Positions 4,764 through 59,827 of a stretch of 64,000 nt of DNA are shown piece by piece; position 1 is the first letter of the stretch; each line of letters begins with the position of its first letter. The notes under the pieces are model-generated. The model saw only the letters and a program-made list of their open reading frames with translations. It made no database searches and was not told the DNA's origin. Source of the DNA: Hormiphora californensis. Taxonomy: Eukaryota; Animalia; Ctenophora. The stretch lies in contig CM035357.1 of assembly GCA_020137815.1 (NCBI GenBank), positions 8,184,001-8,248,000 on the forward strand, written 5' to 3'. Made by a program: the position numbers and the translations under genes.

Positions 4764-5274
4764 AGTGGTAGCAGCAGCAGTAAGGAAGAAAGTTCTGAGG
4801 ATGAGAAGCAGTACAGCTGTATCAAGACTAATCCCGGATTTTACCCATCAACTACTGCATTAACAGATGATTCAGCTTCAGTACTTGATCCAGTTAAATC
4901 TGCTCTTACGGCAAAGTCTTCAAAACAGCCAGTACTTGACCAGCCAGTACTATCTACAGAAAATGATGGTGCTGTCAAGACCCAAATGCAACTGCCTGGT
5001 TATAATACGTTTCGTAAAGTAGACACTGCCCAAAAACCTGCAGTGTTTCAACTAGCAAACATTAATATTTGTAAGGCCGGTTGTGAGTCCAGAGACAATA
5101 TCACTGAAAACAGTCCGATAAGAAACACTGATCATCATGATGATCAGTTTCCATCGATGGGGGAAACAGAGATTGTTCGAGCTCCACCATACTCTGAAAC
5201 AATGCTGGATGGAGAAACACATGCAAAGGCAGCTGAAAAAGAAAATACATTTCCTAGCACCACTTCAAATGCTG
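4764..5274 (+). CDS. Coding exon A (511 nt), S/T/E/K-rich low-complexity segment
   Basis: Acceptor ttaattattttag, open frame SGSSSSKEESSEDEKQY...TTSNA, donor G|gtaagt (phase 1). Includes ORF 4986..5294. Confidence 0.75.
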
Positions 5275-6047
5275 GTAAGTGTTCAACTAGTTAGACTTGC
5301 AAATTTTTACAAATGGAAACACATTTATCTGTTCACTTTCCTTCTTCCCGGCTGCTGTGTTTACTTGATGATAGACAGGGGTCCATTATATCGTGTGGAG
5401 CAATAAAAAGTCCCCCCTCCAAGTCTACTATAGTTTCAGGTATCGTGGAGTGCTAAAATTTGACACAGCTACTCTACGAGATAAATAAATGACTTGACCA
5501 AAATTCAGACCTCTAGCTCAAATTCTTTTTTTTTTTTTGATCGAAATGAACATATAATTAGGGAATATTAGCTTTGAACTAGGGAAAAATGTGTAACAAG
5601 CTAATTCCTTGAAGCCTCTCATGGTCAACCGCGAGCCCCTACCAAAGGCTCCAAACAGCACCAGCCGCTCTAACCAACCAACCAACCAAGCTAATTCCTT
5701 CACCAATTGGTCCCTATGGGTCCCTAGAATCACCAAAAAAAAATCACTAAAAATCCGCGATGGCTAAGTTGGGTTTTTGGACCACGCCCTTTTGCCTGTA
5801 TTTTCAGTGATAAGGGTAAAAATATAAATTCTCTTAGAATAGGAGTAGAGAAGAAAACAAGGGCACTAAAGTGTGTAGCGTCCTCGCATTAGTGGGGGTA
5901 GACACCCATGAAAAGTCTCTATCTCATTTGGTTAATTAGATAATTGGATAATTAGATATGTGCATAGCCGTTTTTGGCCATATGGCTATAGCCACTTAGG
6001 AATGGTTTAGAGACTTTTCACTGGTGCCAAATCAGAATTGGATAAAA

Positions 6048-6454
6048 TTGTTGTAGGTAGTAGAGATTAGCTTTCTGAGCATTTTGCGTTTTTGCCGCTC
6101 AAAATCGACCCACCCATCACTGAAATATCTTTGTTATGTTGGGAGAATTCCTGCTGGATCAATATTTATCAAACAGGATAGAAACAATCCTTGTGTTTTA
6201 CTAACACATTCTTTAAATTTTGAATATATATGCTGGCTTGCATTGCCCTGCTTCTGTGCATGGACATGTCAACCTCACTGTTCATATTCAGAATGTGTTA
6301 GTAAAACACCACGATTGTTTCTTTTCTGTTTTATACATACTGATTAAACAGGAGTTCTCCCAACATAACAAAAATATCTCAGTGATGGGTGGGTCGATTT
6401 TGAGCGGCAAAAACGCAAAATGCTCAGAAAGCTAATCTCTACTACCTACAACAA
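6048..6454. mobile_element. Palindromic MITE-like element (duplicated at about 9268-9673)
   Basis: About 75-bp inverted arms gtaggtagtagagattagctttctgagc...cccatcactga / reverse complement. Confidence 0.7.
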
Positions 6455-9400
6455 ACCTGTCTGATTCTGATTCGGTCCACTCTCACTTTAAGCTCTATTT
6501 CGAACCGTTTAGCCGTTATTTGACTTTAAAGGTGCTCCAAAATCGGGCTTTTTACCGTTTTTGCTATTTGAGCACCTTTAAAGTCAATAATGGCTAAACG
6601 GTTGGAGATAGAGCTTAAAAGTCCGACGTCGACCCCCCATAACTTGTCCATTACCAATATATATATATGTATAACTATATCTAATGCAAATTTGCACGGA
6701 AATATGACACCCTATCGTCAATGTGACGACGTGATCCGTCAGTGTGACGACGTGATCCGTCAGTGTGACGACGTGATTCGTAGGTATCACGTATCACACG
6801 TGTTGAGAACTGCTTGCGACTTGAGGGGTCACATCACATGTATAAAAGGGAGAGAAAGAGAGAAAAAGAGAGGAATCACATCACATAGCATATATATAGC
6901 AGACAGGCAGAGAGAAAAACATAGAAACAGACCCCTCGATTTGCGATCGGTACGATCGCCCCAGTTTTGCCAATTGCTAGTAATAGTAACCAATCGCGGA
7001 TAGCTAATCGCGATAGTTGATCGCTACCTACAATTGTAAAAGTCTCCCGAATCCGCGTCTATTAAATTCAGCTAGTATTACAAAATACATGTCATAGTAT
7101 AACAAAATGCATGATACTACTGTGTGATTTTAAATGACTGAGACTGCTCTATCTCAAATTGTGTAAAAACTATGGCATCTTTCGACTTCAAATTTTGGGA
7201 CACGATAAAACATAATTTCTCATTTATTCTCCCAGATTTTCAGAAAGTTTCCGTGTTCCTGAATGAACTTATTGCCATAAAACCTCCTCCAACTTTACAC
7301 AGTCATATCTCTGGAGTCTAATGAGATAGAGAGTTCAGATGTTAGGAGAGACAGATAAGACGATTTTGAATGTTTTGTCTGCTTTACGAGTTGATAACTT
7401 TACCGTCTGTTCACAGGAACTGTTTAAAGTGATGTAACACGCCCTAATTAGGCCAAATTTAGGTCATTTTACCCCTCAAAGATCACATGTCCAGCTGATT
7501 CTAGTTGGCTAATGAGGCCTCTTACACGAATTCGTCACGTGTTACTGCAAGGATACCGCTCTCCTTTTTCACCTTGACCAAGCAGACATGATCATGATGT
7601 CTGGAAGTGGTAGCAAGCTGTAGGATACCAGACATCATGCTGCTCTCTACTTCAATCACTTTCTCGTATAAGGTCACGTGACTGGAATTGGGATCTCGAC
7701 ATTAGACATGATCAAAATGTCTACAAAGCGTTCTCTCTCTACTGTTCTGAAGAAGGAGTGTGAGACATCCCTCGCTCCTCAACGGATACAGCGGGCTGTA
7801 GCTGCAGCCAGCGAGGACAGATCTTGTAACATTGCATCTACGGACTGAATGACAGTCCTGGAGACAAAGAAGAACTACTACCGGAGTTGTGGACAACGCT
7901 GGCAGAGAAGCCCTTGGTAAAGAGTGCTCAGCGGTTGGGGAGATTCATAGCGGGTCAGACTAGACCCATGAAGATATCCCTGGCAAGCAAGGAGATGCAT
8001 CGTGTATTCTTGGTAAGAAGACACGACTTAGAGAGAGTGAAGTGTTTTCCCGAGTTTATATCCTCCCGACCTTACTTCTGAGGAGAGAGCGGCCCGGGCG
8101 GTCCTAGTGAAGAAGTTAAAAGAGGAGAAGGAGCGGAGCCTGGGAAGTCGTTTAGGATCAAAGGAGGCGAGGTGGTGGAGGTCTCCTCGGGGACACATAG
8201 TACTTACTGTGAGTGCTATTCATTTAAGTTTCTTCTTTTTCATTATTTTCATTAAATTGCCTTCTTTGTTTGCTATAGTGTTCCTGTTGTTAACTATTAG
8301 ACCAGCAGGAACATTCCAACGGGTCCATTACTAAAGTGGATTCCAAGCTACTTCAGCTAAACCTTGTCAAAGGTAAAAAAAAAAATGGGGGAAACAGAGA
8401 TTGTTCGAGCTCCACCATACTCTGAAACAATGCTGGATGGAGAAACACATGCAAAGGCAGCTGAAAAGAAAATACATTTCTAGCACCACTTCAAATGCTG
8501 GTAAGTGTTCAACTAGTTAGACTTGCAAATTTTTACAAATGGAAACACATTTATCTGTTCACTTTCCTTCTTCCCGGCTGCTGTGTTTACTTGATGATAG
8601 ACAGGGGTCCATTATATCGTGTGGAGCAATAAAAAGTCCCCCCTCCAAGTCTACTATAGTTTCAGGTATCGTGGAGTGCTAAAATTTGACACAGCTACTC
8701 TACGAGATAAATAAATGACTTGACCAAAATTTCAGACCTCTAGCTCAAAATTCTTTTTTTTTGTTGATCGAAATGAACATATAATTAGGGAATATTAGCT
8801 TTGAACTAGGGAAAAATGTGTAACAAGCTAATTCCTTGAAGCCTCTCATGGTCAACCGCGAGCCCCTACCAAAGGCTCCAAACAGCACCAGCCGCTCTAA
8901 CCAACCAACCAACCAAGCTAATTCCTTCACCAATTGGTCCCTATGGGTCCTAGAATCACCAAAAAAAAATCACTAAAAATCCGCGATGGCTAAGTTGGGT
9001 TTTTGGACCACGCCCTTTTGCCTGTATTTTCAGTGATAAGGGTAAAAATATAAATTCTCTTAGAATAGGAGTAGAGAAGAAAACAAGGGCACTAAAGTGT
9101 GTAGCCTCGCATTAGTGGGGGTAGACACCATGAAAAGTCTCTATCTCATTGGTTAATTAGATAATTGGATAATTAGATATGTGCATAGCCGTTTTTGGCC
9201 ATATGGCTATAGCCACTTAGGAATGGTTTAGAGACTTTTCACTGGTGCCAAATCAGAATTGGATAAAATTGTTGTAGGTAGTAGAGATTAGCTTTCGAGC
9301 ATTTGCGTTTTTGCCGCTCAAAATCGACCCACCCATCACTGAAATATCTTGTTATGTTGGGAGAATTCCTGCTGGATCAATATTTATCAAAAAGGATAGA

Positions 9401-10340
9401 AACAATCCTTGTGTTTTACTAACACATTCTTTAAATTTTGAATATATATGCTGGCTTGCATTGCCCTGCTTCTGTGCATGGACATGTCAACCTCACTGTT
9501 CATATTCAGAATGTGTTAGTAAAACACCACGATTGTTTCTTTTCTGTTTTATACATACTGATTAAACAGGAGTTCTCCCAACATAACAAAAATATCTCAG
9601 TGATGGGTGGGTCGATTTTGAGCGGCAAAAACGCAAAATGCTCAGAAAGCTAATCTCTACTACCTACAACAAACCTGTCTGATTCTGATTCGGTCCACTC
9701 TCACTTTAAGCTCTATTTCGAACCGTTTAGCCGTTATTTGACTTTAAAGGTGCTCAAAATCGGGCTTTTTACCGTTTTTTGCTCATTTTGAGCACCTTTA
9801 AAGTCAAATAATGGCTAAACGGTTGGAGATAGAGCTTAAAAGTCCGACGTCGACCCCCCATAACTTGTCCATTACCAATATATATATATGTATAACTATA
9901 TCTAATGCAAATTTGCACGGAAATATGACACCCTATCGTCAATGTGACGACGTGATCCGTCAGTGTGACGACGTGATCCGTCAGTGTGACGACGTGATTC
10001 GTAGGTATCACGTATCACACGTGTTGAGAACTGCTTGCGACTTGAGGGGTCACATCACATGTATAAAAGGGAGAGAAAGAGAGAAAAAGAGAGGAATCAC
10101 ATCACATAGCATATATATAGCAGACAGGCAGAGAGAAAAACATAGAAACAGACCCCTCGATTTGCGATCGGTACGATCGCCCCAGTTTTGCCAACTGGCT
10201 AGAATAGTAACCAATCGCGGATAGCTATCGCGATTAGTGTCGCACCTACAATGTAAAAGTCTCCCGAATCCGCGTCTTATTAAATTCAGCGTAGTATTAC
10301 CAAAATAATGTCATAGCATAAACAAAATGCATTGATACTA

Positions 10341-11611
10341 CGTGTGCTTTTAAAACTGAGACTGCTCTATCTCAAATTGGTAAAAAACTATGGCATCTTC
10401 GATTCAAATTTTGGGACACGGTAAAAAATAAATTTCTAATTATCTCCAAGCTTTCAGAAAGTTTCCGTGTTCCTGAATGAACTTATTGCCATAAAACCTC
10501 CTCCAACTTTACACAGTCATATCTCTGGAGTCTAATGAGATAGAGAGTTCAGATGTTTAGGAGAGACAGATAAGACGATTTTGAATGTTTTGTCTGCTTT
10601 ACGAGTTGATAACTTTTACCGTCTGTTCACAGGAACTGTTTAAAGTGATGTAACACGCCCTAATTAGGCCAAATTTAGGTCATTTTACCCCTCAAAGATC
10701 ACATGTCCAGCTGATTCTAGTTGGCTAATGAGGCCTCTTACACGAATTCGTCACGTGTTACTGCAAGGATACCGCTCTCCTTTTTCACCTTGACCAAGCA
10801 GACATGATCATGATGTCTGGAAGTGGTAGCAAGCTGTAGGATACCAGACATCTATGCTGCTCTCTACTTCAATCACTTTCTCGTTATAAGGTCACGTGAC
10901 TGGAATTGGGATCTCGACATTAGACATGATCAAAATGTCTACAAAGCGTTCTCTCTCTACTGTTCTGAAGAAGGAGTGTGAGACATCCCTCGCTCCTCAA
11001 CGGATACAGCGGGCTGTAGCTGCAGCCAGCGAGGACAGATCTTGTAACATTGTCATCTACGGACTGACTGACAGTCCTGGAGACAAAGAAGAACTACTAC
11101 CGGAGTTGTGGACAACGCTGGCAGAGAAGCCCTTGGTAAAGAGTGCTCAGCGGTTGGGGAGATTCATAGCGGGTCAGACTAGACCCATGAAGATATCCCT
11201 GGCAAGCAAGGAGATGCAGTCGTGTATTCTTGGTAAGAAGACACGACTTAGAGAGAGTGAAGTGTTTTCCCGAGTTTATATCTCTCCCGACCTTACTTCT
11301 GAGGAGAGAGCGGCCCGGGCGGTCCTAGTGAAGAAGTTAAAAGAGGAGAAGGAGCGGAGCCCTGGGAAGTCGTTTAGGATCAAAGGAGGCGAGGTGGTGG
11401 AGGTCTCCTCGGGGACACAGTAGTACTTACTGTGAGTGCTATTCATTTAAGTTTCTTCTTTTTCATTTATTTCATTAAATTGCCTTCTTTGTTTGCTATA
11501 GTGTTCCTGTTGTTAACTATTAGACCAGCAGGAACATTTCAACGGGTCCATTACTAAAGTGGATTCCAAGCTACTTCAGCTAAACCTTGTCAAAGGTAAA
11601 AAAAAAAAAAA

Positions 11612-23169: not shown

Positions 23170-26100
23170 AGGGGTTCCCCAGGGGCACCTTGCCCCTACT
23201 CGGTTTTTAGGAAGGGAACATCCGGCCAATTGATTTGGACCCGCCGGTGCCTGTTTTAGGGTGGCAACAGGAGCCCTGGCATGTTAGCAATGGCGTGTAA
23301 GCAATGTTGGCACTCCAAGTTCCGTTAATAGACTTGAGTGTTGTGGTATAAGGTCGTAGGGCTGGATTCCCTCTGTTTGGGCAATGCCGATTTATTGCAG
23401 GTTGACCGCAGCCGTATTGGTCCATCAGGCCCCAGGACCGCGGCTGTGGGACTTCTTCTTCTTCTTCGTAGAGGCTGTCTCAGCCCCGTGAGGGGCTGAG
23501 ATGAAGGGATGTAGCACAATGGTTACGTTCCCCAGCCTTGAGGTACCCCGACCAGAAATTCTAGATTCCTGGGGTGTACTTCTTGGAGTCGTGGTGTTTT
23601 CTACCTAGAGGCCGGGTGAGGGTCCTCGGGGTGTAGTAGTTTCTCCGCCCTTCGGTAAAACGTGACGGTTTTTTGGAAGGGCAGGTGGTGTCTTATGTCG
23701 TCCAAAGTCACGCACAGTTTATCGAATACTTCTTGTCGAAGTTTCCACAGTAGTGGGCATTCTGTGAGTACGTGTTTGACAGTTTCGTCCTCCATCCCAC
23801 ATAGGTTGCAGGTTGTGGTTTTGACTTTTTTCAGTTTTTTCATATGGTAGTTTAGATTGCCATGTCCCGTGAGAAGGTGCGTGGCAGCTCTTAGGTTACT
23901 TCTAGTCATGTTTTTCAGAGATTTCCCAAATCGGTCAGCCCATATCATATCCATGTGGTTTGATATTTTCCTGTTACCGGTTTTAATCTTGTTCCTTAGG
24001 GCTGCGTATGCTGCAGCTTTGGGGATTGGGATTAGGGTTTCTTCTGAAGTATTTTGAGCACCCTTTTTGGCCAGAGCGTCAGCAAGTTCGTTCCCGTGAT
24101 GCCCTTGGTGGGCTGGGATCCATCTTACTGTGACGTTGTTCCAAATTGATAGGGTGTTGAGGTTTGATATTGTTTTCAGAGTGGTTTTTGACCTGGACGT
24201 GGTGGTGTCTAGGCTTTTTATGGTACCCTGGCTGTCACAGTTTATTAGGACCCGCTCATTTGCAGTTCCACTGTCCAGCAGGGTTTGTGTTGCTTGTTGT
24301 ATGGCAAACATTTCTGAGGCTGGCACTGATATGTGCGGGCCTAGGTTAAATGACTTTTGGGTTGTTTCTTCTCCATCTTTCCAGATGGTGAGTCCAGCTC
24401 CCGCATTGTCGTTTATTTTAGAACCATCCGTGTATATAACAGTGGTAAACTCACTTTCCACCTCCTTGTAACTCCCCCTATCCGGGATCTCCGTTTGGAA
24501 ATCCCTGTCTAGGGAAAGCACAGGGGTGGTTAGATCGTGTGTCCACTCAGACGGTAAGGTTCTTAGTGTTTTGTTCACAGTGTTGGCGTGGGATGTGAAC
24601 TTCTTGGGGTTTTTCAGGTCTGATTTTACTGGGCCTTCCCACTGCCCAGTGGCCATCAGAGTGTATGCTGTTTTCACCGCACAGAATCTAAGATGTTCTG
24701 TTATTGGTGTCGTGTTTGTAATCTTGTCCAATGCTGACGCTGGGGTCGTGGGGAGAGCCCCCGTAACCATCTTAAGCGCCATTCTTTGGAGTTTGATCAT
24801 ATTGTCTTGGTTGGTTTTTGTAAGCATGGCGTTTGCCCATACCATAGCTCCATAGGAAAGAGCTGGTCGGACTATTGTTGTGTATATCCAGGATGCGGTC
24901 TTTGGGTTAAGTCCCCACGTGGGGCCTACAACTCTTCTACACTGCATTAGGATGTTTTTGCATTTCTTTATTTGTTTCACTATGTGCTCGTTCCAATTCA
25001 ACTTGCTGTCCAGGGTAAGACCAAGGAATTTGGTGGAGCTCACGGTGTTTATGGAGTTTCCCCCGATTTTAATCGGGTCATTGATTTTAACGTTTTGCCG
25101 ATGGGTGAAGATAACAATATGGGACTTTAGAGCACTAAGCTTTAGTCCCACTGTCTTGCACCACTTATTGATTGCCGTCAAGCCCTTTTGAGTGGCGTCC
25201 CTTAGTGGAAGAATATCCACCGAGGGGCCTGCCTTGGAGGGGGGCATTGTTGTTGTTACCAGGAGACTTAGGTCATCGGCGAATCCCTGTAGGTCACCTG
25301 GTATTTCCTTTTTACTGTGGTTGAGGAGATCATCCATGACTAGGTTCCATAAGAATGGAGAGAGTATGCCGCCTTGGGGGCACCCTCTCGTTACCATGAT
25401 CGTTAACGATTCTCCCAGCAGTTTTGTTGTTACCTTTCGGTTGGTGATTGTGAACATTATCCAGTCAACTGTCCGTTTATCACGGAGTTTGGCGTGGAGT
25501 GCTCTTTCGATAGCTTTAAAGGCAACGTTGTCGAACGCTCCCTCGATATCGAGGAAAGTGCCCAACGCTATGCCTTGGTTCATTAGGGTCTTCTCAATTT
25601 TCCTTACTACTTTGTGGAGGGCTGTCTCGGTGGAGACTCCCCTCTTGAAGCCGTATTGGGATTTATTGAGTTTTTTGTGGACTTTTTGATCCGCTTCGAT
25701 GTGCCAAAGCACCAACCTTTCAGCAAGTTTCTGAAGGTTGGATGCCAGGGTTATCGTTCGGAATGATTTTGGCTGGCGGTAATCTCCTTTCCCTGGTTTG
25801 GGTAGGTAGATTGCTTCCGCTTACTGCCATAGTGTTGGAGTTTTTCCTAGTTCATACGATGCTGTTACGATTTTTGCGAAGTATTTTGCAAAAGTATCGG
25901 CTATTTTCTGCATCATTATTGGCCTTATGCTATCCGGGCCCGCTGCAGTTAGGGGCCTGAATTCGCGTAGGGCTTTAATGATGCGTGTTGTTGAGAATGT
26001 TCTTTCATTAGACCATTTCCCGCGACCAATCTTATCATAGTCTTGGGTTGATGGTCTTGTGATGTTGTGGTCTCCGAAGTGGACGTCTGCCATTGCTAGC

Positions 26101-26275
26101 AGTGTTTCCTTCGGAGAGCTTGTTATGTTGCCGTTTTTGTCGTTTACACAGTTCAGTTTACAACCTTCACTGGTTTTAATGACATGGCTTATTTTTTGTG
26201 CATCAGAGAAGGCGTCGAGTTCTTCCGTCCATGCTTTCCAGCATTTTCTCTTGGAATATACTCGTATCTTACTGT
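23170..26275 (-). mobile_element. 5'-truncated LINE of the I/R1/LOA group: RT, RNase H and CCHC knuckle
   Basis: ORF 23601..25715 contains QYGF, LDIEGAFD, GCPQGGILSP and FADD; RNase H YTDGSK / CDSQ / WIPAHQGHHGNELAD; CNLC..ETVKHVLTEC. It continues upstream in the same frame across a single stop at 25821-25823. Confidence 0.95.
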
Positions 26276-26420
26276 GGCTGTGGGACCACTCCCTAGTCTT
26301 TCCCCGAGAGATACCCTCCCCCTGCCCCCCTAGTCCCCCGTGGGACTACCATACCCCCTGAGATAGACAATGGGCTGCCACAAGGAGTCAGTAATCCAGT
26401 CACCTGACTCCCCCCACAGC

Positions 26421-26731: not shown

Positions 26732-26867
26732 ACACCACATGGGCCCGGGCATCCAAACTAATATTTAATTGGTTTTTGGACATAATTATAATTATAATAT
26801 ATAATTAGTCTGACAAAAGGTGGATTGAAATTCAGTTTGACAGGACGCTAATTATCCTTTTTTTCAG

Positions 26868-29800
26868 GAATCAAAACGTTGGGAGCATACCTGGGCACAT
26901 GCCACCAAGAATCCTTCTAGAGTGCCTCTTCTACAGCTCTCTAAAAATGAATCTTCACTGGAAGATTGGGAGGAAGTACATCCAATTACAGCAGATACCT
27001 ATACTTTTCCTCAATCAACTGAAGAGGCCGCCCCCCAATTTATAAGACGAACCAAAGCTATGTTATCTCACTCAGCTCCAAGCAACAAGTCGCATATTAC
27101 ACTACCTGTCACAATGACATTCGAACAAGGCTCTCAAAACCATGCTAATTTCGTGCCACATATAAACGAGGAGTTATCAAGTTGTTTTAGCCAAATGTCC
27201 ATCGACTGGGAACACGCTGCACAATTATTAAACTCCGATATTTCTCCACTGAAAAAGGCTAATGGCGACCCACTGAACTTAAAACAATCTAACCAGAAAA
27301 AAGAAACAGAAAGTCCACCTGTTGAGCCTACCATACCAGTCAAAAGTACCCCACTCAAAAAAGCTACATTTGTGTACATTTCCAATACAGGCTCCCCTCT
27401 AGTTCCATCTATTGCGACCCCGATTAAGTCTGCTCCAGTAGATCCGGCAATAGCGGCCATATTTGAGAGCAGTACCCTGGTTTCTCCTTGCAAAAAGCAA
27501 GTATGCCGGCCCTCACAACGGATACCTCGGAGAGTATCACTGGTCAAACTGGCGGATAACTGCTCATTAAACTTTATAAAGAGTCCTTCTCCCACTAGTG
27601 CACGTGAGATGGGTAGAAAATTGTTTTCAGGAAAGCATGACTGGAGCAATGTTGAAACAGTTCGTGATGCGAGTACAGATACAACGCCTAAGAAAAACAA
27701 GACTGCTGTAAAAGCACAGTCAATAACCTCTTGGAAAAATTGCCTAAAAAATCTCAAGGATTATCCATTTTTTAGCATCAATCAACAGCAACTCAAAATT
27801 GCTGAAACGAGTAATGTTATTTCAGATAGGTTCACGACAAATGAAACCTCTAGAGTGTCTCCTAAATCTGTTTTCTTGAAAGAAATCGTCCAAGATTCAA
27901 CCGATGAGACAACGGGTGATGCGGAAAAAATACCATCTGTCTCGCAATGGCCAATTGATAACCCCAGTGATAGCCATATTTTCAAGACTCCATCCGAATG
28001 GGCGGTCTCAGAATCAGCTGTAAAACCATTTTTGTCGCCAGCTAAACAACCATTGGATCTAAGTTGTCCTTATGATCCTAGCGAAACTGGATGTTATTCT
28101 ACCGATATTGAACATTCAACCGAGGTTATCCCAGCTCCAGTTCATGATGGCAGTGCAAAGATTGTTGATGAAAAACAGGAAGATATCAGTAAAAAGTCTT
28201 CTATAACAGTTAACCTTACCAAACTTCTAAGTTGTGAGGAGATTTCAAAGGAGATATCATCTAGCCCATATCTACTGGAAAAACTCAATGACCCATCTAA
28301 ACAATGTCCTAGAGCTTCGATTTCTGACACCTACCAATCATCTATCTCCGAGTCTGCTTCAAAAATATCGTCCAATAACTCCCCGAAAAATACACTCACT
28401 ATGTTAGCAGATTCTGTTATGGGAAATATACAGAGTTTTGTTGACACTACCGGAGAGGAAACACTGGATTTTGAAGCAGGCGATGACATTACATCCTACA
28501 AACATAAGAACGTAATGATCGGATATGGAAAGGAATTTTTGGATGAAGGGGAAGTTTTTTCTTCCGATGAAGAAGGTGAACTGAAAATACTCAACGGAGA
28601 AAAAGAGGAAGAGGTAACAGTCAGCAGGGAAAAGAGAGATAAAAGTATGTCAAACGAATGGAATAAAATATTAAAGCAAGAGAGAATTTTTCAGACGGAT
28701 CTGAAATTGAGTAATACGCTCGTAGGAACTAAAAATCCAGAATACACAGATAAAGAGTTGTCAGAAACAAAGAAAATTGCAAAGTGTTTGAAATCCCATA
28801 CTCACGTCGTGACTACTACACAATCAAAAATCAGATCTGTATTACAATTACCTTGTGGTAATTCGGAACTAACTCCTTTGCATTCAATAGAAGATGTATG
28901 TTATGTATCGGAAGTAGATCCATTGCCTATGACGCAGATGACCAATCTACCATGTTTATTGGAAGTACCTCACTTGGCTATAAATATGCGTCTAGGCCAT
29001 CCATCAGAACTACCCCCACAAAAATGTTCTGTGACACAAGCTCTCATATGTGAAGATGCGCTTTCGAACCCCGATTCCTTGACTTCTTCAGTGAATGACT
29101 TCCCTGAAATGCGGGCAAGTAAGCTTAATGAAAGCGATAAAGTTTGTAGCTCGTCAAATTTGTTGCTATGCAAAGATTCTCTGGTTTGCTCATCTTCTTC
29201 TGCCGATAGAACTGTTCCGCTGAATGAACCTGCATCTAATGTAACTTTAGTGGGTAAGGTGACAACGGATGACTGGATTGCTGGGTCACAAATAGTGCCG
29301 GGTGAGCTCGCCAGTTTTTGGAAACAACAAACTAATAATATTTCATCTGAAAATGCCATCGATCCCGTTTCTGGGATGGAATTTCATCCAAAAAATTTAG
29401 CTGCAGGTCAGCAGCCTAGACGAAGACTCTCTCTACATGACTATGTAAATCGAAAAAAAGCTCTACAGTCTGGCACAAAACAACTAAATGAGAATGTAGC
29501 CAGTGCAAGTGCTGCGGCGGTGGTTTGTGAGTCAGAATTTGTGAGCATAAAGAAGGTTGGTAAGAAAACAGATATGACAGCAACTTTAAACTTCCACCAT
29601 TTAATCCCAATTCATGTTCCGCCCATTGAGTTCACTTATCTAAGACGGGTCCCAGTAATACAGGATATGCTGATTAATGAGATTGTAAATGGAGTAAATT
29701 TTGGTGGTTTTGTTTCGCAAAATTTGCTCCCCAGCCGTGCAGGTGGAAGGTGGACGACGACAAATCAGCTCAATTGTGATAAAAGCCGGGTTAATGACAA

Positions 29801-31587
29801 GAAGACTTGGGGGTCAGTAAGAAGGGGCAAAATCGATGCAAGACGTGAAGAAGAGGATACAGTTATAGAAAACGTGGTACCATTTGACGATTATCAAGGA
29901 AAAGATCAGCTTGAATCAAATTTATCAACTTTGGTCCCTTCCTGTGTTTTAGAATCCCATCCCCCTCAACAGCGGAAAAAATTGAATGGCCAACCAGAAA
30001 TTCTGGACGAGGAATCGAGCGATTTTTTTCATATGGTTTGTATACCGAAAGTGAAACGTGTAACAGATACTTACATGTCTGATCAAACGATTTTAGATTC
30101 GTACGGCACGGGAAGAGATGCCTTTGAAGTAGGAAAACTGATTCGACGGAGTATTAGATCTGCAGATGGAAATGATATTCGGGAGTTTCCAAGCGACTTT
30201 CCCAGATTTGTCCCTCTTTCCTTAAAACATTCAAACGTCGGGCAAGCATCATCAGGAAACGAAGAAATGTCTACATTAAAAAAAATGCTATCTTCCCCAA
30301 CATCTAAGTCTAAGTTACATATACAACACTCATCCACGGTAACTTTACCATTATCCGTCGGCAAATATGCGATCAAAGATATGTCATCACCTTGTTCGGG
30401 GGTTTCGATATCACCCGGAAGTATAGATGTTACTTGTGATGAGATTTCTGGTAAAGAAGTTCAGGTACCTGTTGTTACAAGCCCGCAGTCTAGGACCCAA
30501 GACCAGACACAACCTTTAGACAACATAAACTCTGTAAACACAACCGTTATGGAACAGGAAAAAGATTCTAGCACGCCACAACCGTTGCCTCAAGAAGTTA
30601 CCTCAAGTGAATCTATTCGTCTATTTCTTTTAGACAATTTGGACGCCACCCCAAAGGAATCTATCTTTACTCGACGACGTAAGCAGCAAATGGAATCTTC
30701 TGTCATTGGGAAGCGGGAGAGAAGTATGACATCTGTTACTCCGCTAGCTGAAGTTGTTGCAACAGATTTAAAAAATCTTGATCAAGTAGGGAAGGAACAA
30801 AACACAGAATCGAATGGATATTCACATATAAAGGGGAAAAGCCAAGAACTCGGGAAAGGTCTTTTAAAAATAGATCAAGGAAAACAGGGACAGATGATAC
30901 AAAAGACCAGAAAGCGCCGTAAAACTGACTCTCCAGATAAAGGAGTAACTGACCTTCGTTCCCTGTTGAAGAATCGCAATAAAAGTCCCAGTAACTGTAC
31001 ATCAACAGGAAAGCCACATTGTAAAAGATCCAAAAACTCTGGAAAGGGTGATTTAATATCCATTTTTTCTGACTTTCGTGGCCAACTATTTGATCCAGTT
31101 GAAGTACTGAGGATAAATCGAGGGGTAAAGGATCTTACATACGATACATCAAAATCTTGTGAAACCTTAAATGAGTGGCTAGATAAATGGAGGGAGATAG
31201 CTGAACCACGAATACGTGAGCTTGCGGATATGAGGCATTTGTTGTTTGAAAAAAATAATTCGTTACCATTGACAGACAAATCAATGAAAAGGCTTACAAA
31301 ACAAAGATCAGGTTTTGGCTGGAAAGAGAGCATACCTGACTCCACTTATCAAAAACGTATGGGATTGATAGGTGTAGCTAATTGTATGAAAACCGTCGAG
31401 TCCTTTAACATCTCTACTACTGATAGATCAGTTAATCCCCTCTTAAAAAGGCGTGAAATATACAACTACAAGAAAAAGGGGAAGGTGCTAGCACCTAAAG
31501 TGTGGGAAGAGAGTCTTGATATTGCTAATGATGCAGACGGCGTAAAACAGAAACGGAAAGGAAAGAATGTCCTTGATTTTATGATAG
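26868..31587 (+). CDS. LSM11: Giant coding exon C (4,720 nt): disordered region ending in an LSm11 N-terminal-like segment
   Basis: Acceptor ccttttttttcag in frame with the 1560-aa ORF; donor ATAG|gtgagt. Contains SDFRGQLFDPVEVL...YDTSKSCETLNEW (31068-31178), NLS-like KTRKRRK and terminal KNVLDFMI. Confidence 0.88.
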
Positions 31588-32000
31588 GTGAGTTTAATTG
31601 TTAACATTTCTTTAACAGGGGTTTCAGGAGCAGTAAGCACCTCGATTTTTAAAATTTTGATTAGAATCGCTAATTTTTTCTGGTGGTGATCAATGGGCTA
31701 AAGAATAACTGCATTATGTTTCATAATGCTATGTTTCCCCGCCAACCTTTATTTTCATAACCATCTAATGGGAAGGAGGGACAGGCGTTTCCGATCATTT
31801 ATGAATCAGTCAAACCGTATAGAACAAATCTTTGTGTTTTGGTAGCACTAAATTGCGCGCCTCACATTTCCTGAAAACGTGCCATTGAAGTATTTGATGA
31901 AGGAGCAACATCGTTGTCCCTCGCAACTGAGCGGGTTACGTTACAAAAAAGCGTGACACTTCACTAGTATGTAAAATAAAATTGTCGAATTCTAAATAGT

Positions 32001-35560: not shown

Positions 35561-38092
35561 AACTACCACGTTCGCAAAAGACCGTAAATAATACACGCTC
35601 CATACACTGACACTTTCTTCACCAAACATGACTAATAGCGTCAGTGGAATGGCTCTTCACCGGGCATGGCATGGCGCCAGTGGGGCCGGCATTGGCTGAG
35701 CCTGGGACTTTTGCATATGCTAGCAGTTTGGTATTCGTTCGCTGTGTGAAAGGCATGAAGTGATTGTGTGGTTTGACTTCGTTGGCGTGGGGTTTCGTTG
35801 GGGTGTCAGATTTTGATGCAGGGTCTTGACTTGGTCCGAGTTCCGTGGTGCAGCAGGATGTCTGATGTTGTTGGCTTTACGCAGGAATACCGCAGTTTCC
35901 CAGGGGTGATCCTTGAAGAGACATCTCATCCGGACTGCATGAAGCTAAGGCTTATCTGTAGATAGATGTTGATTCCTAATGACGTCGTACCCTGGGCAAT
36001 GCAATAGTACATGTTCCTCATCCTCCGTGATTGTCTCGTGTGAGGGGAGTTGAGAGATGAGCAGGAAAGTAAGGGTATCCTCCGTGGTGCAGATGGGGCA
36101 GGCTCTTTTCTTTATCAGTGTGTCCTCTGTCCTTGTGCTTTCCCTGTATTTTTGTTGTCTCCCTACTTCAATGTTGAATCGGTGAGCACTGCACCTTAGT
36201 CTTGCTATCCATTTAGATAGGTCACGTTCGAGGTCAAGATATTCTTCTGGGTAAAATGATGTTTTCACCGTATTGTACAATTCCATTTCCCTGTTTGTAG
36301 TGCGATCCCTTTTCCAACTGGTGGTGAATGTATCTTCCTTGTCGAGACGGCTCATGGCGAGTACTTGAGTAACCCGGTCCAGCTCCAGCAATTCTTGCTC
36401 CTTCAGAGCATAAACCACTAACGGGGTGGAAGTATCATGGCTGTCACAGTTTTCCATGTCTTTGATACGGTTGAAGGCGCCCACAATCGCCCTATACCGC
36501 AACGCTGGGGGCCCGAGTGTGTATTCCCAACGCCATCTTGCAGAATGATAGATGCAATCGTTCCAAGGGCGATTTGGCTATGATCTTCAAATTCAGTGAG
36601 TCTTTGCTTATAATTGACTTCCAGGATGTGTGCGGGAGCCATACTTGAGAGCAGTAGCTAGCCACGGGAAGGACTAGTGAGTCGAAAAGTTTCAGCGCTG
36701 TGCGGGGACTTATCGCCGAGAAATCAATTTGTTTCTTCAAGGCGAATACAGCTCTGAGGGCTTTTTGCTTGAGCTTAGCTTCATTCAGCTTAAATGATCC
36801 ATTGAGAGTGAAGGTTACACCCAGGTAGCAATATGTTTTTGCGGAGGGTATTCTCTGTCCCTTGAATGTAAATCTTTCACTTTCTTTTAGTTTGACTGCC
36901 GATTTGTTGAATACCATGACTTCTGTTTTCTTGAGGTTTACGGAGAGCCCCCATTCCTCACAGTATTCCTCTAGTACATCGATGAGTCGTTGGAGGCTGG
37001 CAGGGTTTAAAGCCATCAGAACCAAGTCGTCGGCCCACAGGAGGTGAGAAATGTATTCCCCCGCCAAGGATGGTGATGAAGAAGCCTCTTCCCTGTTGAG
37101 TCTTACCGAGAGCTCGTGTACGTAGATCTTAAAGAGCTCAGGACTTAGAGGGTGACCCTGTTCTGTACCAGTGTACCGATGTTAACCTCTATAGTCTCTG
37201 TGAGCTTACCAAGGAGTTTTATCTTGGCTGCAGATCCAGTATACATATCCTTGAGTACACCAAAGAACCGGCCACGCACGCCGTATTGATAGAGTTTATA
37301 CAGTAGGGCCTCCCTGCACACGGTGTCAAAGGCTTTGGAGTAGTCTACAAACACCGTGTACAGGCGAGATTTTTGCTGGATGTATTTATCTATGGTTGTC
37401 TTCAGGGTTAGGACATGGTCAGCGGTTTGCTCTCCTTTACAGAACCCCAGTTGATTCGGAAGATCTGGTACTTCAATAGAGCGGAAATCCAGAAGCCTAT
37501 CCAATAGAATCCCAGAGAATAGCTTTCCAAGGTTGCTTGCTACTGCCACTGCTCTGTAAGTTGTTGGGATCATACCTACTGCCTTTCTTATGTAGCGGGG
37601 TAACGAGTGATTCTTTCCAGGGATAACACTGGTTTCGAAGACATTGGTTAAACAGGTTAGTTGTCGCCTCCATGACTTCGGGACTGCTTGCTTTCAGAAA
37701 CTCATTGGAAATCTGGTCCTCAGCCACTGCTTTTCCGTCCCTGAGTCTCCTTGTTACAGCTGCTACTTCTTCTACTGACACATCCCTATTGAGAGCTTCA
37801 TCTAGATCCTCTGATATGGGTTCCTCGCATGGCGTATCCCAGCACAAAGCTTGTTCCTTTCCTGACAGAGCGGCTGGTGGGGGCTGCTTGGCGTAGAGTT
37901 TCTTGAAGAACTTGCAGAAGTTTTTCATGTCGAACGCGTCCAGCTTGCTATCCAAGGGTGCAAAGCTCTTCAACTTCTTGAGATTTTTCCAGTCGATGTT
38001 ACCATCATCGATATCTTGGGAGAGTTCTCTGATGTAGCGTCTCTTTGTGTTTCTTACCAACCTTCTGTGATCCTTTTTCGCTGTGAATAGTT

Positions 38093-40084
38093 TAGTAGAG
38101 TCGATAACTACAGGGTGTCCCACTGTCTTTGCGTGACCTGTGATTTTGGGTGGTGAGTGGGTTCCATTCAAATGCTCATAACTCATCGAAAAATAGGTCA
38201 AAACGGCTCAACCAAAAACAGTGTTGTAGAGAATTGTCAGGCGAACGTTTGGGTACAAGATTGATGTTCCAAGTCTTACCAACCGTCAGATATATCGTCT
38301 TAAAGTCAAAAATACGTATTCATGAAATCCGACCGGGGTTCACGTTTTGAAAAATTCACAAATGCAAAGTTGCTCGGATCACATTGCATCCCTCATAAGA
38401 GTTGTAGGAAATTGTCTGGCGGTCATTTTGGTACCCGCGTTTTTGTCCTAGCTCAATGTTTAGAGTGTCTTATGACTGTCAGAACTGGAATTTTCACAAA
38501 AGTGGTCTCAGGTATCGCATTACATTTTGCCCTGTTATGAAGATCATTGCTGCTTGAATAACATCTTAGTGCATGATAGGGTTGAGATAGACCACTTGCG
38601 TATCCTACACATTAACAGGGGCCTTGCCAAATCGTCATAATAACCCTGTCAAGTGTCTAGATGAAATTGAGACGATATGTCCTGATTAGCATGGGATTAC
38701 ACACGACACCGAGCCACCTAATTAGGCGCTGTGAGCCGATACCAACTAAGACTCAGCGTAGAAAATCTTAATGTTCCTACAGTCATAACGCAACTAAAAC
38801 GTAGAGCTATGGAAAAAATCATGGTGTCAAAATGAACCTTAGACGATTCCAATGAAGCTCTTATAAATTTCAAACCATTTTACCCATTTGTTGATGACAC
38901 GTGATCCCCTCAAAAATGTTGGTTGAATTTCGTCTTTAGACAGTCATAAGACACTTTAAACATTGAGCTAGGACAAAAACCCGGGTACCAAAATGACCGC
39001 CAGACAATTTCCTACAACTCTTATGAGGGATGCAATGTGATCCGAGCAACTTTGCATTTGTGAATTTTTCAAAACGTGAACCCCGGTCGGATTTCATGAA
39101 CACGTATTTTTGACTTTAAGACGATATATCTGACGGTTGGTAAGACTTGGAACATCAATCTTGTACCCAAATGTTCGCCTGACAATTCTCTACAACACTG
39201 TTTTTGGTTGAGCCGTTTTGACCTATTTTTCGATGAGTTATGAGCATTTGAATGGAACCCACTCACCACCCAAAATCACAGGTCACGCAAAGACAGTGGG
39301 ACACCCTGTACATCGACCTCTCCCAATTGTTCCAGTTTTTGTCACATCAGTTTGGAGCCTCGACACGACCTCTAAACAGGTGTTACTTTTTCACAAGCTG
39401 TTTTCATCTTGGTGTAATCAGCAGTTGAAATGTTGCTGATCATAACAAAAATCTGACTAAATTTTTTCAACTTGGGGTACAACCATGGGTGTCAAAAGTT
39501 AGCTCTAGGTCCCCTGAGTAACCATCCGGAGACTCCAAGAGATATTTCAAGCCGTTCTCCTGTAATCATTAATCCCGGTAGAGCACATATTTGAGTATGG
39601 GCGTACGTGCAATTGCCTACAACCTCAACTTTAATGTATAACGTTAATGTGCGTCTCTCTCTTTTCTCCCCCTTGAGAAAGAGTTATCTCGCGCGGCGCA
39701 ACCGCACGTGCGGTTTTTCCAGAGAGAGTGAGAGACATACAATAACATGTAAACAGCCTGCCAGCGCTCACGTACGTCCGCATTGTATTTTTTTCTCCAC
39801 CGGGATTAATGATTACGGGAGAACGGCTTGAAATATCTCTTAGAGTCTCCGGATGGTTACTCAGGGGACCTAGAGCTAACTTTTGACACCCATGGTTTTA
39901 CCCCAAGTTGAAAAAATTTAGTCAGGTTTTTGTTATGATCAGCAACATTTCAACTGCTGATTACACCAAGATGAAAACAGTTTGTGAAAAAGTAACACCT
40001 GTTTAGAGGTCGTGTCGAGGCTCCAAACAGATGTGACAAAACTGGAACAATTGGGAGAGGTCGATGTAGTTATCGACTCTACTA
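38093..40084. mobile_element. Non-autonomous foldback element with TAG...CTA ends and a 3-bp TSD (Academ-like)
   Basis: gtt-TAGTAGAGTCGATAACTA...TAGTTATCGACTCTACTA-gtt; ~290-bp arms. Removing it restores the LINE frame (TGQLFTAKK). Confidence 0.75.
38111..39308. mobile_element. Tc1/mariner-type foldback element (1.2 kb, ~365-bp TIRs, TA TSD)
   Basis: ta-CAGGGTGTCCCACTG...CAGTGGGACACCCTG-ta, inserted in the left TIR of 38093-40084. Confidence 0.9.
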
Positions 40085-46041: not shown

Positions 46042-46181
46042 CAAAGAAAGATGGTCCATTTGGATTGCTTCAACGAGCAATGACTGAAAACCTTCGTGTT
46101 ACTGTTCTGACTAGGACCTACAAAGGAGTGAGGGGCCAGTGCTCTGGATATCTTGTGGCCTTTGATAAATACATGAACCTT
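46042..46181 (+). CDS. LSM11: Coding exon D: Sm motif 1 of LSm11
   Basis: Acceptor atatcccccag, donor CTT|gtaagt. Encodes AKKDGPFGLLQRAMTENLRVTVLTRTYKGVRGQCSGYLVAFDKYMNL; the RT.KG.RG.C.G.LVAFDK..N pattern is LSm11-type. Confidence 0.9.
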
Positions 46182-52761: not shown

Positions 52762-52984
52762 GCGTTGACTGACGTGACTGAACACTTCCGATCTTTATAC
52801 CATTCCGAGAGAACCTGTGGGAAAGTGGAGATTGAAATCAACCTTATAAATCAATCAGCTTCATCGCAACGGTCAAAAATAAACGAAGGAGTACACTGTT
52901 ATGATAATGTTAAAATCAAACCTGTTTCACCTTCTTTCTCCCCGGGGTCTAGTATAGGATCTCCTGGCACAACTCCTTCACCAG
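52762..52984 (+). CDS. LSM11: Coding exon E: end of Sm1 (ALTDVTE) and the Ser/Pro-rich Sm1-Sm2 loop
   Basis: Acceptor tttacttttag, phase 0; ALTDVTEHF continues Sm1 from exon D. Donor CCAG|gtcagt. Confidence 0.85.
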
Positions 52985-56495: not shown

Positions 56496-57185
56496 AACCA
56501 TTCGGGGCCTGGCAAGGCCCCCCGACCCGAAAATAACCCAAACTCAACCCATCCCCCCTAAAACATCCCCCCTAAAACTAAAACAACGGGGCCGAGCCGA
56601 CAGGCCCTTAATACCAGATGAAAAAAACCATAACCATTCGGGGCCTGGCAAGGCCCCCCGACCCGAATATAACCCAAACTCAACCCATCCCCCCTAAAAC
56701 ATCCCCCCTAAAACTAAAACAACGGGGCCGAGCCGACAGGCCCTTAATACCAGATGAAAAAAAACCATAAACCATTCGGGGCCTGGCAAGGCCCCCCGAC
56801 CCGAATATAACCCAAACTCAACCCATCCCCCCTAAAACATCCCCCCTAAAACTAAAACAACGGGGCCGAGCCGACAGGCCCTTAATACCAGATGAAAAAA
56901 AACCATAAACCATTCGGGGCCTGGCAAGGCCCCCCGACCCGAATATAACCCAAACTCAACCCATCCCCCCTAAAACATCCCCCCTAAAACTAAAACAACG
57001 GGGCCGAGCCGACAGGCCCTTAATACCAGATGAAAAAAAACCATAAACCATTCGGGGCCTGGCAAGGCCCCCCGACCCGAATATAACCCAAACTCAACCC
57101 ATCCCCCCTAAAACATCCCCCCTAAAACTAAAACAACGGGGCCGAGCCGACAGGCCCTTAATACCAGATGAAAAAAAAACCATAA
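56496..57185 (+). repeat. About 137-bp satellite, 5 copies (2 more at about 60176-60450)
   Basis: Unit aaccattcggggcctggcaaggccccccgacccgaa...cccttaataccagatgaaaaaa. Confidence 0.93.
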
Positions 57186-59693
57186 AACCATAACCATAAC
57201 CATAACCATAGATATTTTTAGAGTGAAAGTTTTGAAGCCCCCTGAAGTAGTAGAGAGGTGTTCTATGGCTCGTTGGAAAGGTCTCGAGGTCCCGCGACGT
57301 ATAGGGGGTGTGGCGATGGCCATACCCAAACCTATAAGGGGTAGGACGCGAAAAACAGTCAAAATAAGGGGTATACAGAACTCGGCAATTAGAAGGAGTA
57401 GAAAGGTGTTCTAGGGTGCGTTCGAAAGCTCTCGAGGTGCTGAAGTAATTGGAATGTAATTGGAAGTAATTACATGTAATTAAAGGGTAATTACATGTAA
57501 TTAAAGGGTAATTACATGTAATTAAAAGGTCTAAATGACCCCAAATGACAATTCAGACATATTTTGACACATTTGGAGGCCCTGAGACCAGCGGGTGGCC
57601 AAATTTAATCCGGTTTCGGGTCGGCTGACGTAAAAACTCCGCGTTTTGGTCGAGGTAAACCATAAACCATAACCATAGATATTTTTAGAGTGAAAGTTTT
57701 GAAGCCCCCTGAAGTAGTAGAGAGGTGTTCTATGGCTCATTGGAAAGGTCTCGAGGTCCCGCGACGTATAGGGGGTGTGGCGATGGCCATACCCAAACCT
57801 ATAAGGGGTAGGACGCGAAAAACAGTCAAAATAAGGGGTATACAGAACTCGGCAATTAGAAGGAGTAGAAAGGTGTTCTAGGGTGCGTTCGAAAGCTCTC
57901 GAGGTGCTGAAGTAATTGGAATGTAATTGGAAGTAATTACATGTAATTAAAATGTAATTACATGTAATTAAAGGGTAATTACATGTAATTAAAAGGTCTA
58001 AATGACCCCAAATGACAATTCAGACATATTTTGACATATTTGGAGGCCCTGAGACCAGCGGGTGGCAAAATTTAATCCGGTTTCGGGTCGGCTGACGTAA
58101 AAACTCCGCGTTTTGGTCGAGGTAAACCATAAACCATAAACCATAACCATAGATATTTTTAGAGTGAAAGTTTTGAAGCCCCCTGAAGTAGTAGAGAGGT
58201 GTTCTATGGCTCATTGGAAAGGTCTCGAGGTCCCGCGACGTATAGGGGGTGTGGCGATGGCCATACCCAAACCTATAAGGGGTAGGACGCGAAAAACAGT
58301 CAAAATAAGGGGTATACAGAACTCGGCAATTAGAAGGAGTAGAAAGGTGTTCTAGGGTGCGTTCGTAAGCTCTCGAGGTGCTGAAGTAATTGGAATGTAA
58401 TTGGAAGTAATTACATGTAATTAAAATGTAATTACATGTAATTAAAGGGTAATTACATGTAATTAAAAGGTCTAAATGACCCCAAATGACAATTCAGACA
58501 TATTTTGACATATTTGGAGGCCCTGAGACCAGCGGGTGGCAAAATTTAATCCGGTTTCGGGTCGGCTGACGTAAAAACTCCGCGTTTTGGTCGAGTAAAC
58601 CATAAAACCATAAACCATAAAACCATAGATATTTTTAGAGTGAAAGTTTTGAAGCCCCCTGAAGTATTAGAGAGGTGTTCTATGGCTCGTTGGAAAGGTC
58701 TCGAGTTCCCGCGACGTATAGGGGGTGTGGCGATGGCCATACCCAAACCTATAAGGGGTAGGACGCGAAAAACAGTCAAAATAAGGGGTATACAGAACTC
58801 GGCAATTAGAAGGAGTAGAAAGGTGTTCTAGGGTGCATTCGAAAGCTCTCGAGGTGCTGAAGTAATTGGAATGTAATTGGAAGTAATTACATGTAATTAA
58901 AATGTAATTACATGTAATTAAAGGGTAATTACATGTAATTAAAAGGTCTAAATGACCCCAAATGACAATTCAGACATATTTTGACATATTTTGAGGCCCT
59001 GAGACCAGCGGGTGGCCAAATTTAATCCGGTTTCGGGTCGGCTGACGTAAAAACTCCGCGTTTTGGTCGAGGTAAACCATAAACCATAAACCATAACCAT
59101 AGATATTTTTAGAGTGAAAGTTTTGAAGCCCCCTGAAGTAGTAGAGAGGTGTTCTATGGCTCATTGGAAAGGTCTCGAGGTCCCGCGACGTATAGGGGGT
59201 GTGGCGATAGCCATACCCAAACCTATAAGGGGTAGGACGCGAAAAACAGTCAAAATAAGGGGTATACAGAACTCGGCAATTAGAAGGAGTAGAAAGGTGT
59301 TCTAGGGTGCGTTCGAAAGCTCTCGAGGTGCTGAAGTAATTGGAATGTAATTGGAAGTAATTACATGTAATTAAAATGTAATTACATGTAATTAAAGGGT
59401 AATTACATGTAATTAAAAGGTCTAAATAACCCCAAATGACAATTCAGACATATTTTGACATATTTGGAGGCCCTGAGACCAGCGGGTGGCAAAATTTAAT
59501 CCGGTTTCGGGTCGGCTGACGTAAAAACTCCGCGTTTTGGTCGAGGTAAACCATAACCATAAACCATAGATATTTTTAGAGTGAAAGTTTTGAAGCCCCC
59601 TGAAGTAGTAGAGAGGTGTTCTATGGTTCGTTGGAAAGGTCTCGAGGTCCCGCGACGTATAGGGGGTGTGGCGATGACCATACCCAAACCTAT

Positions 59694-59827
59694 TAAGGTG
59701 AAAGCGAAACAACAACGAACTGGCTGCGCGTCGCGCATTCGTTGCGCATAACGATCTCACCGGAGAGATTCACATGTGCAACGTTGCGGGACGCGCAGCC
59801 AGTTCGTTGTTGTTTCGCTTACACTTT
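59694..59827. mobile_element. About 132-bp palindromic MITE inserted in one satellite unit
   Basis: aagcgaaacaacaacgaactggctgcgcgtc / gacgcgcagccagttcgttgttgtttcgctt; absent from sister units; TSD ambiguous (TA or TAT). Confidence 0.8.

Follow-up and report, generated by a model that had tools for sequence, protein, structure and literature searches.

A conserved tandem ARS2-recruitment-type motif on a probable, unusually long LSm11 of a ctenophore

In mammals, the contact between ARS2 and FLASH was reported to be needed for correct histone mRNA processing (PMC5923425). Three parts of FLASH are described as understood, namely an LDLY motif with a coiled coil at the N-terminus, an ARS2 site in the centre and a SANT/Myb domain at the C-terminus, within a protein of about 2,000 residues that is mostly uncharacterised, and the LDLY and coiled-coil part was reported to bind LSm11 as a dimer, at a ratio of 2:1 (PMC5636114). 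The FARB peptide of FLASH is given as 931-DELEEGEIRSDSE-943 (PMC5923425). For Drosophila, Ars2 was reported neither to bind FLASH nor to be required for histone processing (PMC3884669), indicating that the ARS2-FLASH link is not universal. The ARS2-recruitment consensus was published as [DE]-[DE]-G-[DE]-[ILV] (PMC10720265; the same in 10.1101/2023.07.25.550453). The same motif is reported to be common to Red1/ZFC3H1, ZC3H4, ZC3H6, ZC3H18, NCBP3, THRAP3, PRPF4B, RTF1 and CPSF2, with two or three tandem copies in ZFC3H1, ZC3H4, ZC3H6 and ZC3H18 (PMC9402713). Since many ARS2 partners carry it, the motif is not specific to FLASH.

Human LSm11 is reported to have 154 residues before its Sm fold (PMC13552480). 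The LSm11 of Priapulus caudatus (XP_014665639.1, P0127), annotated only as SRRM2-like, has 2,292 aa with an insert of ~2,100 residues between Sm1 and Sm2, indicating that LSm11 can expand disordered regions on its own. It carries two serine-variant look-alikes of the ARS2 motif and a GVTDLR word (residues 1090-1096, 1261-1267 and 2095-2103). Enlarged LSm11 loops were also observed in Lineus (865 aa), Ptychodera (603) and Saccoglossus (522). For ctenophores, histone stem-loops with purine-rich downstream elements have been reported (10.64898/2026.10.14.759114); the main text of this source, which concerns Lsm11 and ctenophores, contains neither the word 'fusion' nor any of the four ctenophore genera searched for. 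No natural Lsm11-FLASH fusion was described among the literature titles listed, and nothing on FLASH or ARS2 in ctenophores was present among the literature listed.

The window, the 64-kb stretch of Hormiphora californensis DNA that was analysed, contains an open frame of 1,587 codons around the motif (26841-31604, + strand). The giant exon within this frame is delimited by two splice sites, the acceptor being at 26867/26868 and the donor at 31587/31588, and has the following features:

26868-31587, + strand: giant exon of 1,573 codons (4.7 kb), phase 0 to phase 1, with a disordered extension and a probable LSm11 N-terminal region
28419-28589, + strand: most conserved 57-residue segment, ending in the tandem motif, 55/57 positions invariant in three species
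28542-28556, + strand: ARS2-recruitment-type motif 1 (DEGEV), a consensus match whose context resembles the FARB of FLASH
28569-28583, + strand: ARS2-recruitment-type motif 2 (EEGEL), a consensus match

The earlier note had described two tandem (D/E)EGE(V/L) motifs in a disordered chain rich in S, T, E and K and had assigned them to the ARS2-recruitment type, and both points were borne out. LDEGEVFSSDEEGEL is the exact + strand translation of 28539-28583, both halves fit the published consensus, and DEGEV and EEGEL, nine residues apart, are the only matches to [DE][DE]G[DE][ILV] in the 1,573 exon-encoded residues. When the exon protein was shuffled and searched with this pattern, which had been picked after the sequence was seen, at least one consensus copy was obtained in 574/20,000 shuffles, two copies anywhere in 4/20,000, and two within 20 residues in 1/20,000. 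S, T, E and K together make up 34.6% of the exon-encoded chain. In a single-sequence AlphaFold model of residues 1-1,200 the mean pLDDT was 32.8 with no helix longer than 17 residues, and the conserved island around the motifs stayed below 40 throughout; a three-sequence model was low-confidence throughout (mean pLDDT 36.4). These low-confidence models are consistent with disorder, yet they would also be expected from shallow alignments. The exact consensus, the tandem copies and the disordered setting are shared with ARM proteins (Red1/ZFC3H1, ZC3H18, ZC3H4, NCBP3 and PHAX). Unlike the candidate LSm11 tail, none of the ARM proteins named in the cited literature is an Sm-ring subunit, and zinc fingers of the kind found in the ZC3H-type ARM proteins gave no Pfam match in the window protein.

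With the last 193 residues of the exon as query, two relatives were found among 192 candidates, namely Pleurobrachia bachei (P0002), whose homologue of the giant exon is 90% identical, and a third relative (P0003, 78%). The earlier note had asked for conservation of the motif in orthologues, and the motif is invariant in both of these close relatives. The 57-residue segment, of a size chosen after the fact, ranks first of 1,530 in conservation, against 1,035/1,401 invariant positions in the whole alignment. The motif is inside a 28-residue invariant run, the third longest in the three-sequence alignment after runs of 38 and 33 residues; invariant runs of at least 28 residues arose in 342/5,000 column permutations, which makes the run weak evidence when taken by itself. 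In the contigs of organism B (run X11), all five exonic indel events are multiples of three, and single-base indels are found in the flanking introns. Among the 40 of 195 differences listed (up to 28541), 38 exonic ones split 15/8/15 by codon position, indicating that the chain outside the island evolves with little constraint, and the four that fall in the conserved island are all at third positions. Taken together, the triplet indels, the codon-position pattern and the conservation of the segment indicate that the chain is coding and fast-evolving, and is constrained locally at the motif.

The two longer invariant runs (29595-29708 and 30009-30107, 38 and 33 residues, respectively) are hydrophobic, gave no Pfam match and are possible binding elements. 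Other conserved words of the tail are RRRLSLxDY, a basic stretch ending in DLRxxL, and ETLDFE (29418-29450, 30906-30971 and 28458-28475, respectively), which we take to resemble linear motifs of nuclear RNA factors.

At the 3' end of the giant exon and downstream of it, the following LSm11 features were assigned:

31068-31115, + strand: LSm11 signature A (D-x5-FDP-x2-L), best matrix site, 1/2,000 shuffles as high
31548-31583, + strand: LSm11 signature B (KNVL..M), just 5' of the donor, best matrix site, 32/2,000 shuffles as high
46042-46181, + strand: LSm11 Sm1 exon, phase 1 to phase 0, from the human LSm11 match and splice sites
52762-52984, + strand: following LSm11 exon, with the last part of Sm1 and the beginning of the internal loop, phase 0 to phase 1, from the ALTDV-type continuation

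The LSm11 homologue search covered 1.84 billion representatives and gave 278 matches, of which the 150 listed include many fragments. The signature A matrix was built from 29 Met-start matches with F[DN]P minus three near-duplicates (26 sequences), and the signature B matrix from 19 of these. In the window protein and in both relatives, the best-scoring sites of signatures A and B are at the end of the giant exon. The Sm1 exon, 14.4 kb downstream of the giant exon and compatible with it in phase, matched human LSm11 (E 2.9e-10) in the PDB more closely than SmD2 (E 4.7e-4). With the predicted splice, signature B would lie 11 residues from the Sm1 'GP', as in 13/19 LSm11 proteins. The acceptor at 52762 was the only downstream phase-0 acceptor yielding the expected ALTDV-type continuation, by comparison with P0070, and an Sm2 exon was not found within the 64-kb window. 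The whole-region HMM of the LSm11 N-terminus was weak on the exon (E 0.04 over the whole protein and 0.13 over its best-scoring stretch), and a PDB search with the LSm11 N-terminal region of the giant exon missed LSm11. A word-based search with the Sm1 exon gave no match, and a metagenome scan gave nine loci (36-58% identity), none with a comparable giant exon. It is very probable from the sequence that the giant exon is spliced to the Sm1 exon, and because both signatures are at the exon end, with matching phase and the usual spacing to Sm1, the gene most probably encodes an LSm11 whose N-terminus is extended by 1,400 residues or more.

The top Sm1 matches, P0004 (71%) and P0005 (65%), were set aside as uninformative on the N-terminus, being single-exon fragments. 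In both, the same two intron positions bound the similar region; they probably come from more distant ctenophores, and P0005 is on a 100-kb contig.

Like described LSm11 proteins, the window protein has the Sm1 exon, the ALTDV-type continuation and both N-terminal signatures in order at the usual Sm1 spacing. The differences are in length and in the motifs. In the frame, signature A falls at residue 1,417, which leaves at least 1,400 residues before it, whereas in the 29 Met-starting LSm11 matches its median position is 31 and its maximum 260; the distance from signature A to Sm1 is ~170 residues here against 78-149 in other LSm11. Consensus ARS2 motifs were found in 0/150 LSm11 matches listed (29,723 residues), whereas the window protein carries two. 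With the Priapulus LSm11, the window protein has in common a huge disordered region, ARM look-alikes and the GVTDLR word; in contrast, the Priapulus insert lies between Sm1 and Sm2 and the extension here is N-terminal, the Priapulus look-alikes miss the strict consensus, and the two proteins have no alignable similarity (best E 3.5).

An invariant run covers the 19 residues before the first Met of the giant exon, indicating that coding continues upstream of it. One candidate exon was observed on that side:

4764-5274, + strand: candidate coding exon on the upstream side, with a low-complexity translation of 170 aa, phase 0 to phase 1, with AG/GT ends

The frame of this exon has 176 codons, and an orthologous stretch in P. 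bachei P0156 is 86% identical over a 56-aa query; its codon-position split (10/5/4, p 0.2) is uninformative. It is phase-compatible with the giant exon only via a further bridging exon, and the phase-1-to-0 candidates in 5275-26867 were short, unconvincing and not adopted. The upstream exon had no Pfam match, and no FLASH domain was present in it or in P0156. P0156 was rejected as a FLASH-bearing gene, the upstream exon sitting there between transposon-like or unrelated pieces. The gene start was not identifiable within the 64-kb window.

The 3' end of the upstream exon is copied in a tandem 3.2-kb duplication (5157-8385 and 8385-11608, 97.8%), the second copy of which has scattered one-base losses and may therefore be an assembly artefact. 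The window is repeat-rich, with 49% having a second copy inside it. Remains of non-LTR retroelements are present in introns at 23601-26345 and 35945-38207 (both - strand), the former with a 739-codon frame matching reverse transcriptase and RNase H, and a tandem array with a unit of ~470 bases and 97-99% identity occupies 57177-61603, preceded by a ~138-base array from 56492. Rfam gave no match in the window.

Like FLASH, the window protein is a large and for the most part disordered chain that has an ARS2-type motif in its central part, a tie to LSm11 and a similar context of motif 1, which by eye is identical to FARB at 6/13 positions. The mapped ARS2 site of FLASH is a single motif, whereas the window protein has a tandem pair, and FLASH is separate from LSm11, whereas the tail here is probably joined to it covalently. 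The SANT/Myb, LDLY and coiled-coil parts of FLASH, which the earlier note had stated were not visible, were not found in the visible exons either by Pfam and PDB searches or in the models. An LDLY-like motif was absent from P0001-P0003, the visible exons gave no long coiled coil or heptad helix, and the model of residues 1-1,200 had no long helix. In the stretch that separates the motifs from the LSm11 part, neither Pfam nor the PDB gave a match to SANT/Myb, and the low-confidence models showed no helical bundle. No sequence similarity to FLASH was detected in the visible exons, and the FLASH cluster was absent from the Atlas matches listed, which all scored 0.80 or less; no other Atlas search yielded a usable match. 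These FLASH negatives are insensitive, as the LSm11 N-terminal region likewise escaped the same PDB search. Of the proposal in the earlier note that the extension is 'FLASH itself or a functional analogue', the second part stands as the leading reading in the form of an analogue of FLASH's ARS2 site, since the consensus motifs are conserved in two relatives and are most likely on LSm11, and the first part found no FLASH-specific feature. Overall, the conserved tandem ARS2-type motif is real and is most likely carried by an unusually long LSm11, and FLASH identity is unsupported by FLASH-specific features.

A true fusion, in which LDLY, coiled coil and FARB would be joined to LSm11, with SANT/Myb lost and the FLASH N-terminus upstream of the window, is considered unlikely. 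The resemblance of motif 1 to FARB reaches beyond the core and would suit it, as would the properties of FLASH as the direct partner of LSm11, with ~2,000 residues and a central ARS2 site (PMC5636114). Coding continues upstream to an unseen N-terminus, and the motif lies ~840 residues before the LSm11 part, against ~1,040 from FARB to the end of FLASH. With a fusion of whole FLASH, however, SANT/Myb would be expected just before the LSm11 part, inside the visible exon, and its absence there argues against this reading, together with several other negatives: no LDLY-like motif in P0001-P0003, no long helix up to residue 1,200, no FLASH domain in either P0156 or the upstream exon, and no FLASH cluster among the Atlas matches listed. 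In addition, FLASH binds LSm11 2:1 as a dimer, which a 1:1 fusion does not supply simply, and tandem copies of the motif are reported for ZFC3H1, ZC3H4, ZC3H6 and ZC3H18 (PMC9402713). That FLASH and LSm11 form one gene in Pleurobrachia-type comb jellies, encoding a self-contained U7 subunit with its own cleavage-module dock in the upstream exons and a tether to the cap-binding complex, is doubtful, and so is the accompanying loss of the SANT domain, through which FLASH is brought to histone locus bodies.

It is quite unlikely that the motifs bind ARS2 for an end other than histone pre-mRNA cleavage, such as PHAX-like capture of nascent capped U7 snRNA during snRNP biogenesis, or a link of LSm11 to termination or to RNA decay in the nucleus. 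PHAX, NCBP3, ZC3H18, ZC3H4 and ZFC3H1 are reported to use the same surface of ARS2 (PMC9402713, 10.1101/2023.07.25.550453), and the dispensability of Ars2 for histone cleavage in Drosophila (PMC3884669) would agree with such a role, but for an LSm11 subunit the mammalian ARS2-FLASH contact in histone processing is the most direct parallel. Still less probable is an acidic patch kept for a reason other than ARS2 binding, as a phosphorylated motif for a different partner or as a small divergent domain. The conserved island reaches ~40 residues upstream of the motifs, and a five-residue consensus is low in information, one copy arising in 574 of the 20,000 shuffles; against this are the two exact copies nine residues apart and the pLDDT below 40 across the island. 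A weak SH3-like PDB match in the island (E 0.67), which would have favoured a domain, was rejected because Pfam gave no SH3 at E up to 10. We give the lowest probability to the giant frame being a separate protein, or to LSm11 starting near the 3' end of the frame by an internal start or trans-splicing. Spliced-leader trans-splicing occurs in ctenophores, and a conserved Met precedes signature A by ~130 residues. In P. bachei, the model P0002 ends at an intron read-through stop without joined Sm exons, and no junction-spanning RNA reads or contigs were found in the sequencing runs examined. Run X12 (presumed RNA) matched the giant exon with three short pieces and the upstream exon with one, none of them crossing a junction, and run X14 gave only partial, unrelated-looking pieces or nothing; the pieces from both runs were left out of the evidence. 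Nevertheless, one unbroken frame runs from the motif pair through the LSm11 signatures in the window protein and in both relatives, and the predicted join to Sm1 keeps the phase and leaves signature B at its customary distance.

The explanation we lean towards, and hold to be moderately probable, is a lineage-specific disordered LSm11 tail, at least 1,400 residues long, with tandem motifs that work like the ARS2 site of FLASH. Splicing of the giant exon to the LSm11 Sm exons would place the motif pair on the LSm11 polypeptide. By analogy with FLASH, Red1/ZFC3H1 and ZC3H18, the acidic motifs may bind the basic zinc-finger foot of ARS2; what is established for ARS2 would have them contact a patch of lysines in its C-terminal leg, and the tandem copies would tend to raise the affinity for ARS2. 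The LSm11 tail would then tether U7 snRNP directly to the cap-binding complex and ARS2 on nascent capped histone pre-mRNA, a job that in mammals falls to the FARB peptide of FLASH. To bring in the cleavage module, such an LSm11 would still depend on a FLASH-type partner with LDLY and coiled coil that docks on the LSm11 signature it has kept, and this partner may most simply be encoded by a separate gene.

ARS2 was reported to bind FLASH in mammals and not in Drosophila (PMC3884669), which bears on whether it belongs to the core of histone mRNA 3' processing. A true fusion, if it existed, would offer a natural case in which to examine the 2:1 stoichiometry of FLASH and LSm11 as well as the SANT/NPAT contact. 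If a constrained ARS2-type motif is indeed present on a U7 ring subunit of ctenophores, the link from the cap to U7 would be either old or reinvented, and its position on LSm11 would mean that this link can move between partners.
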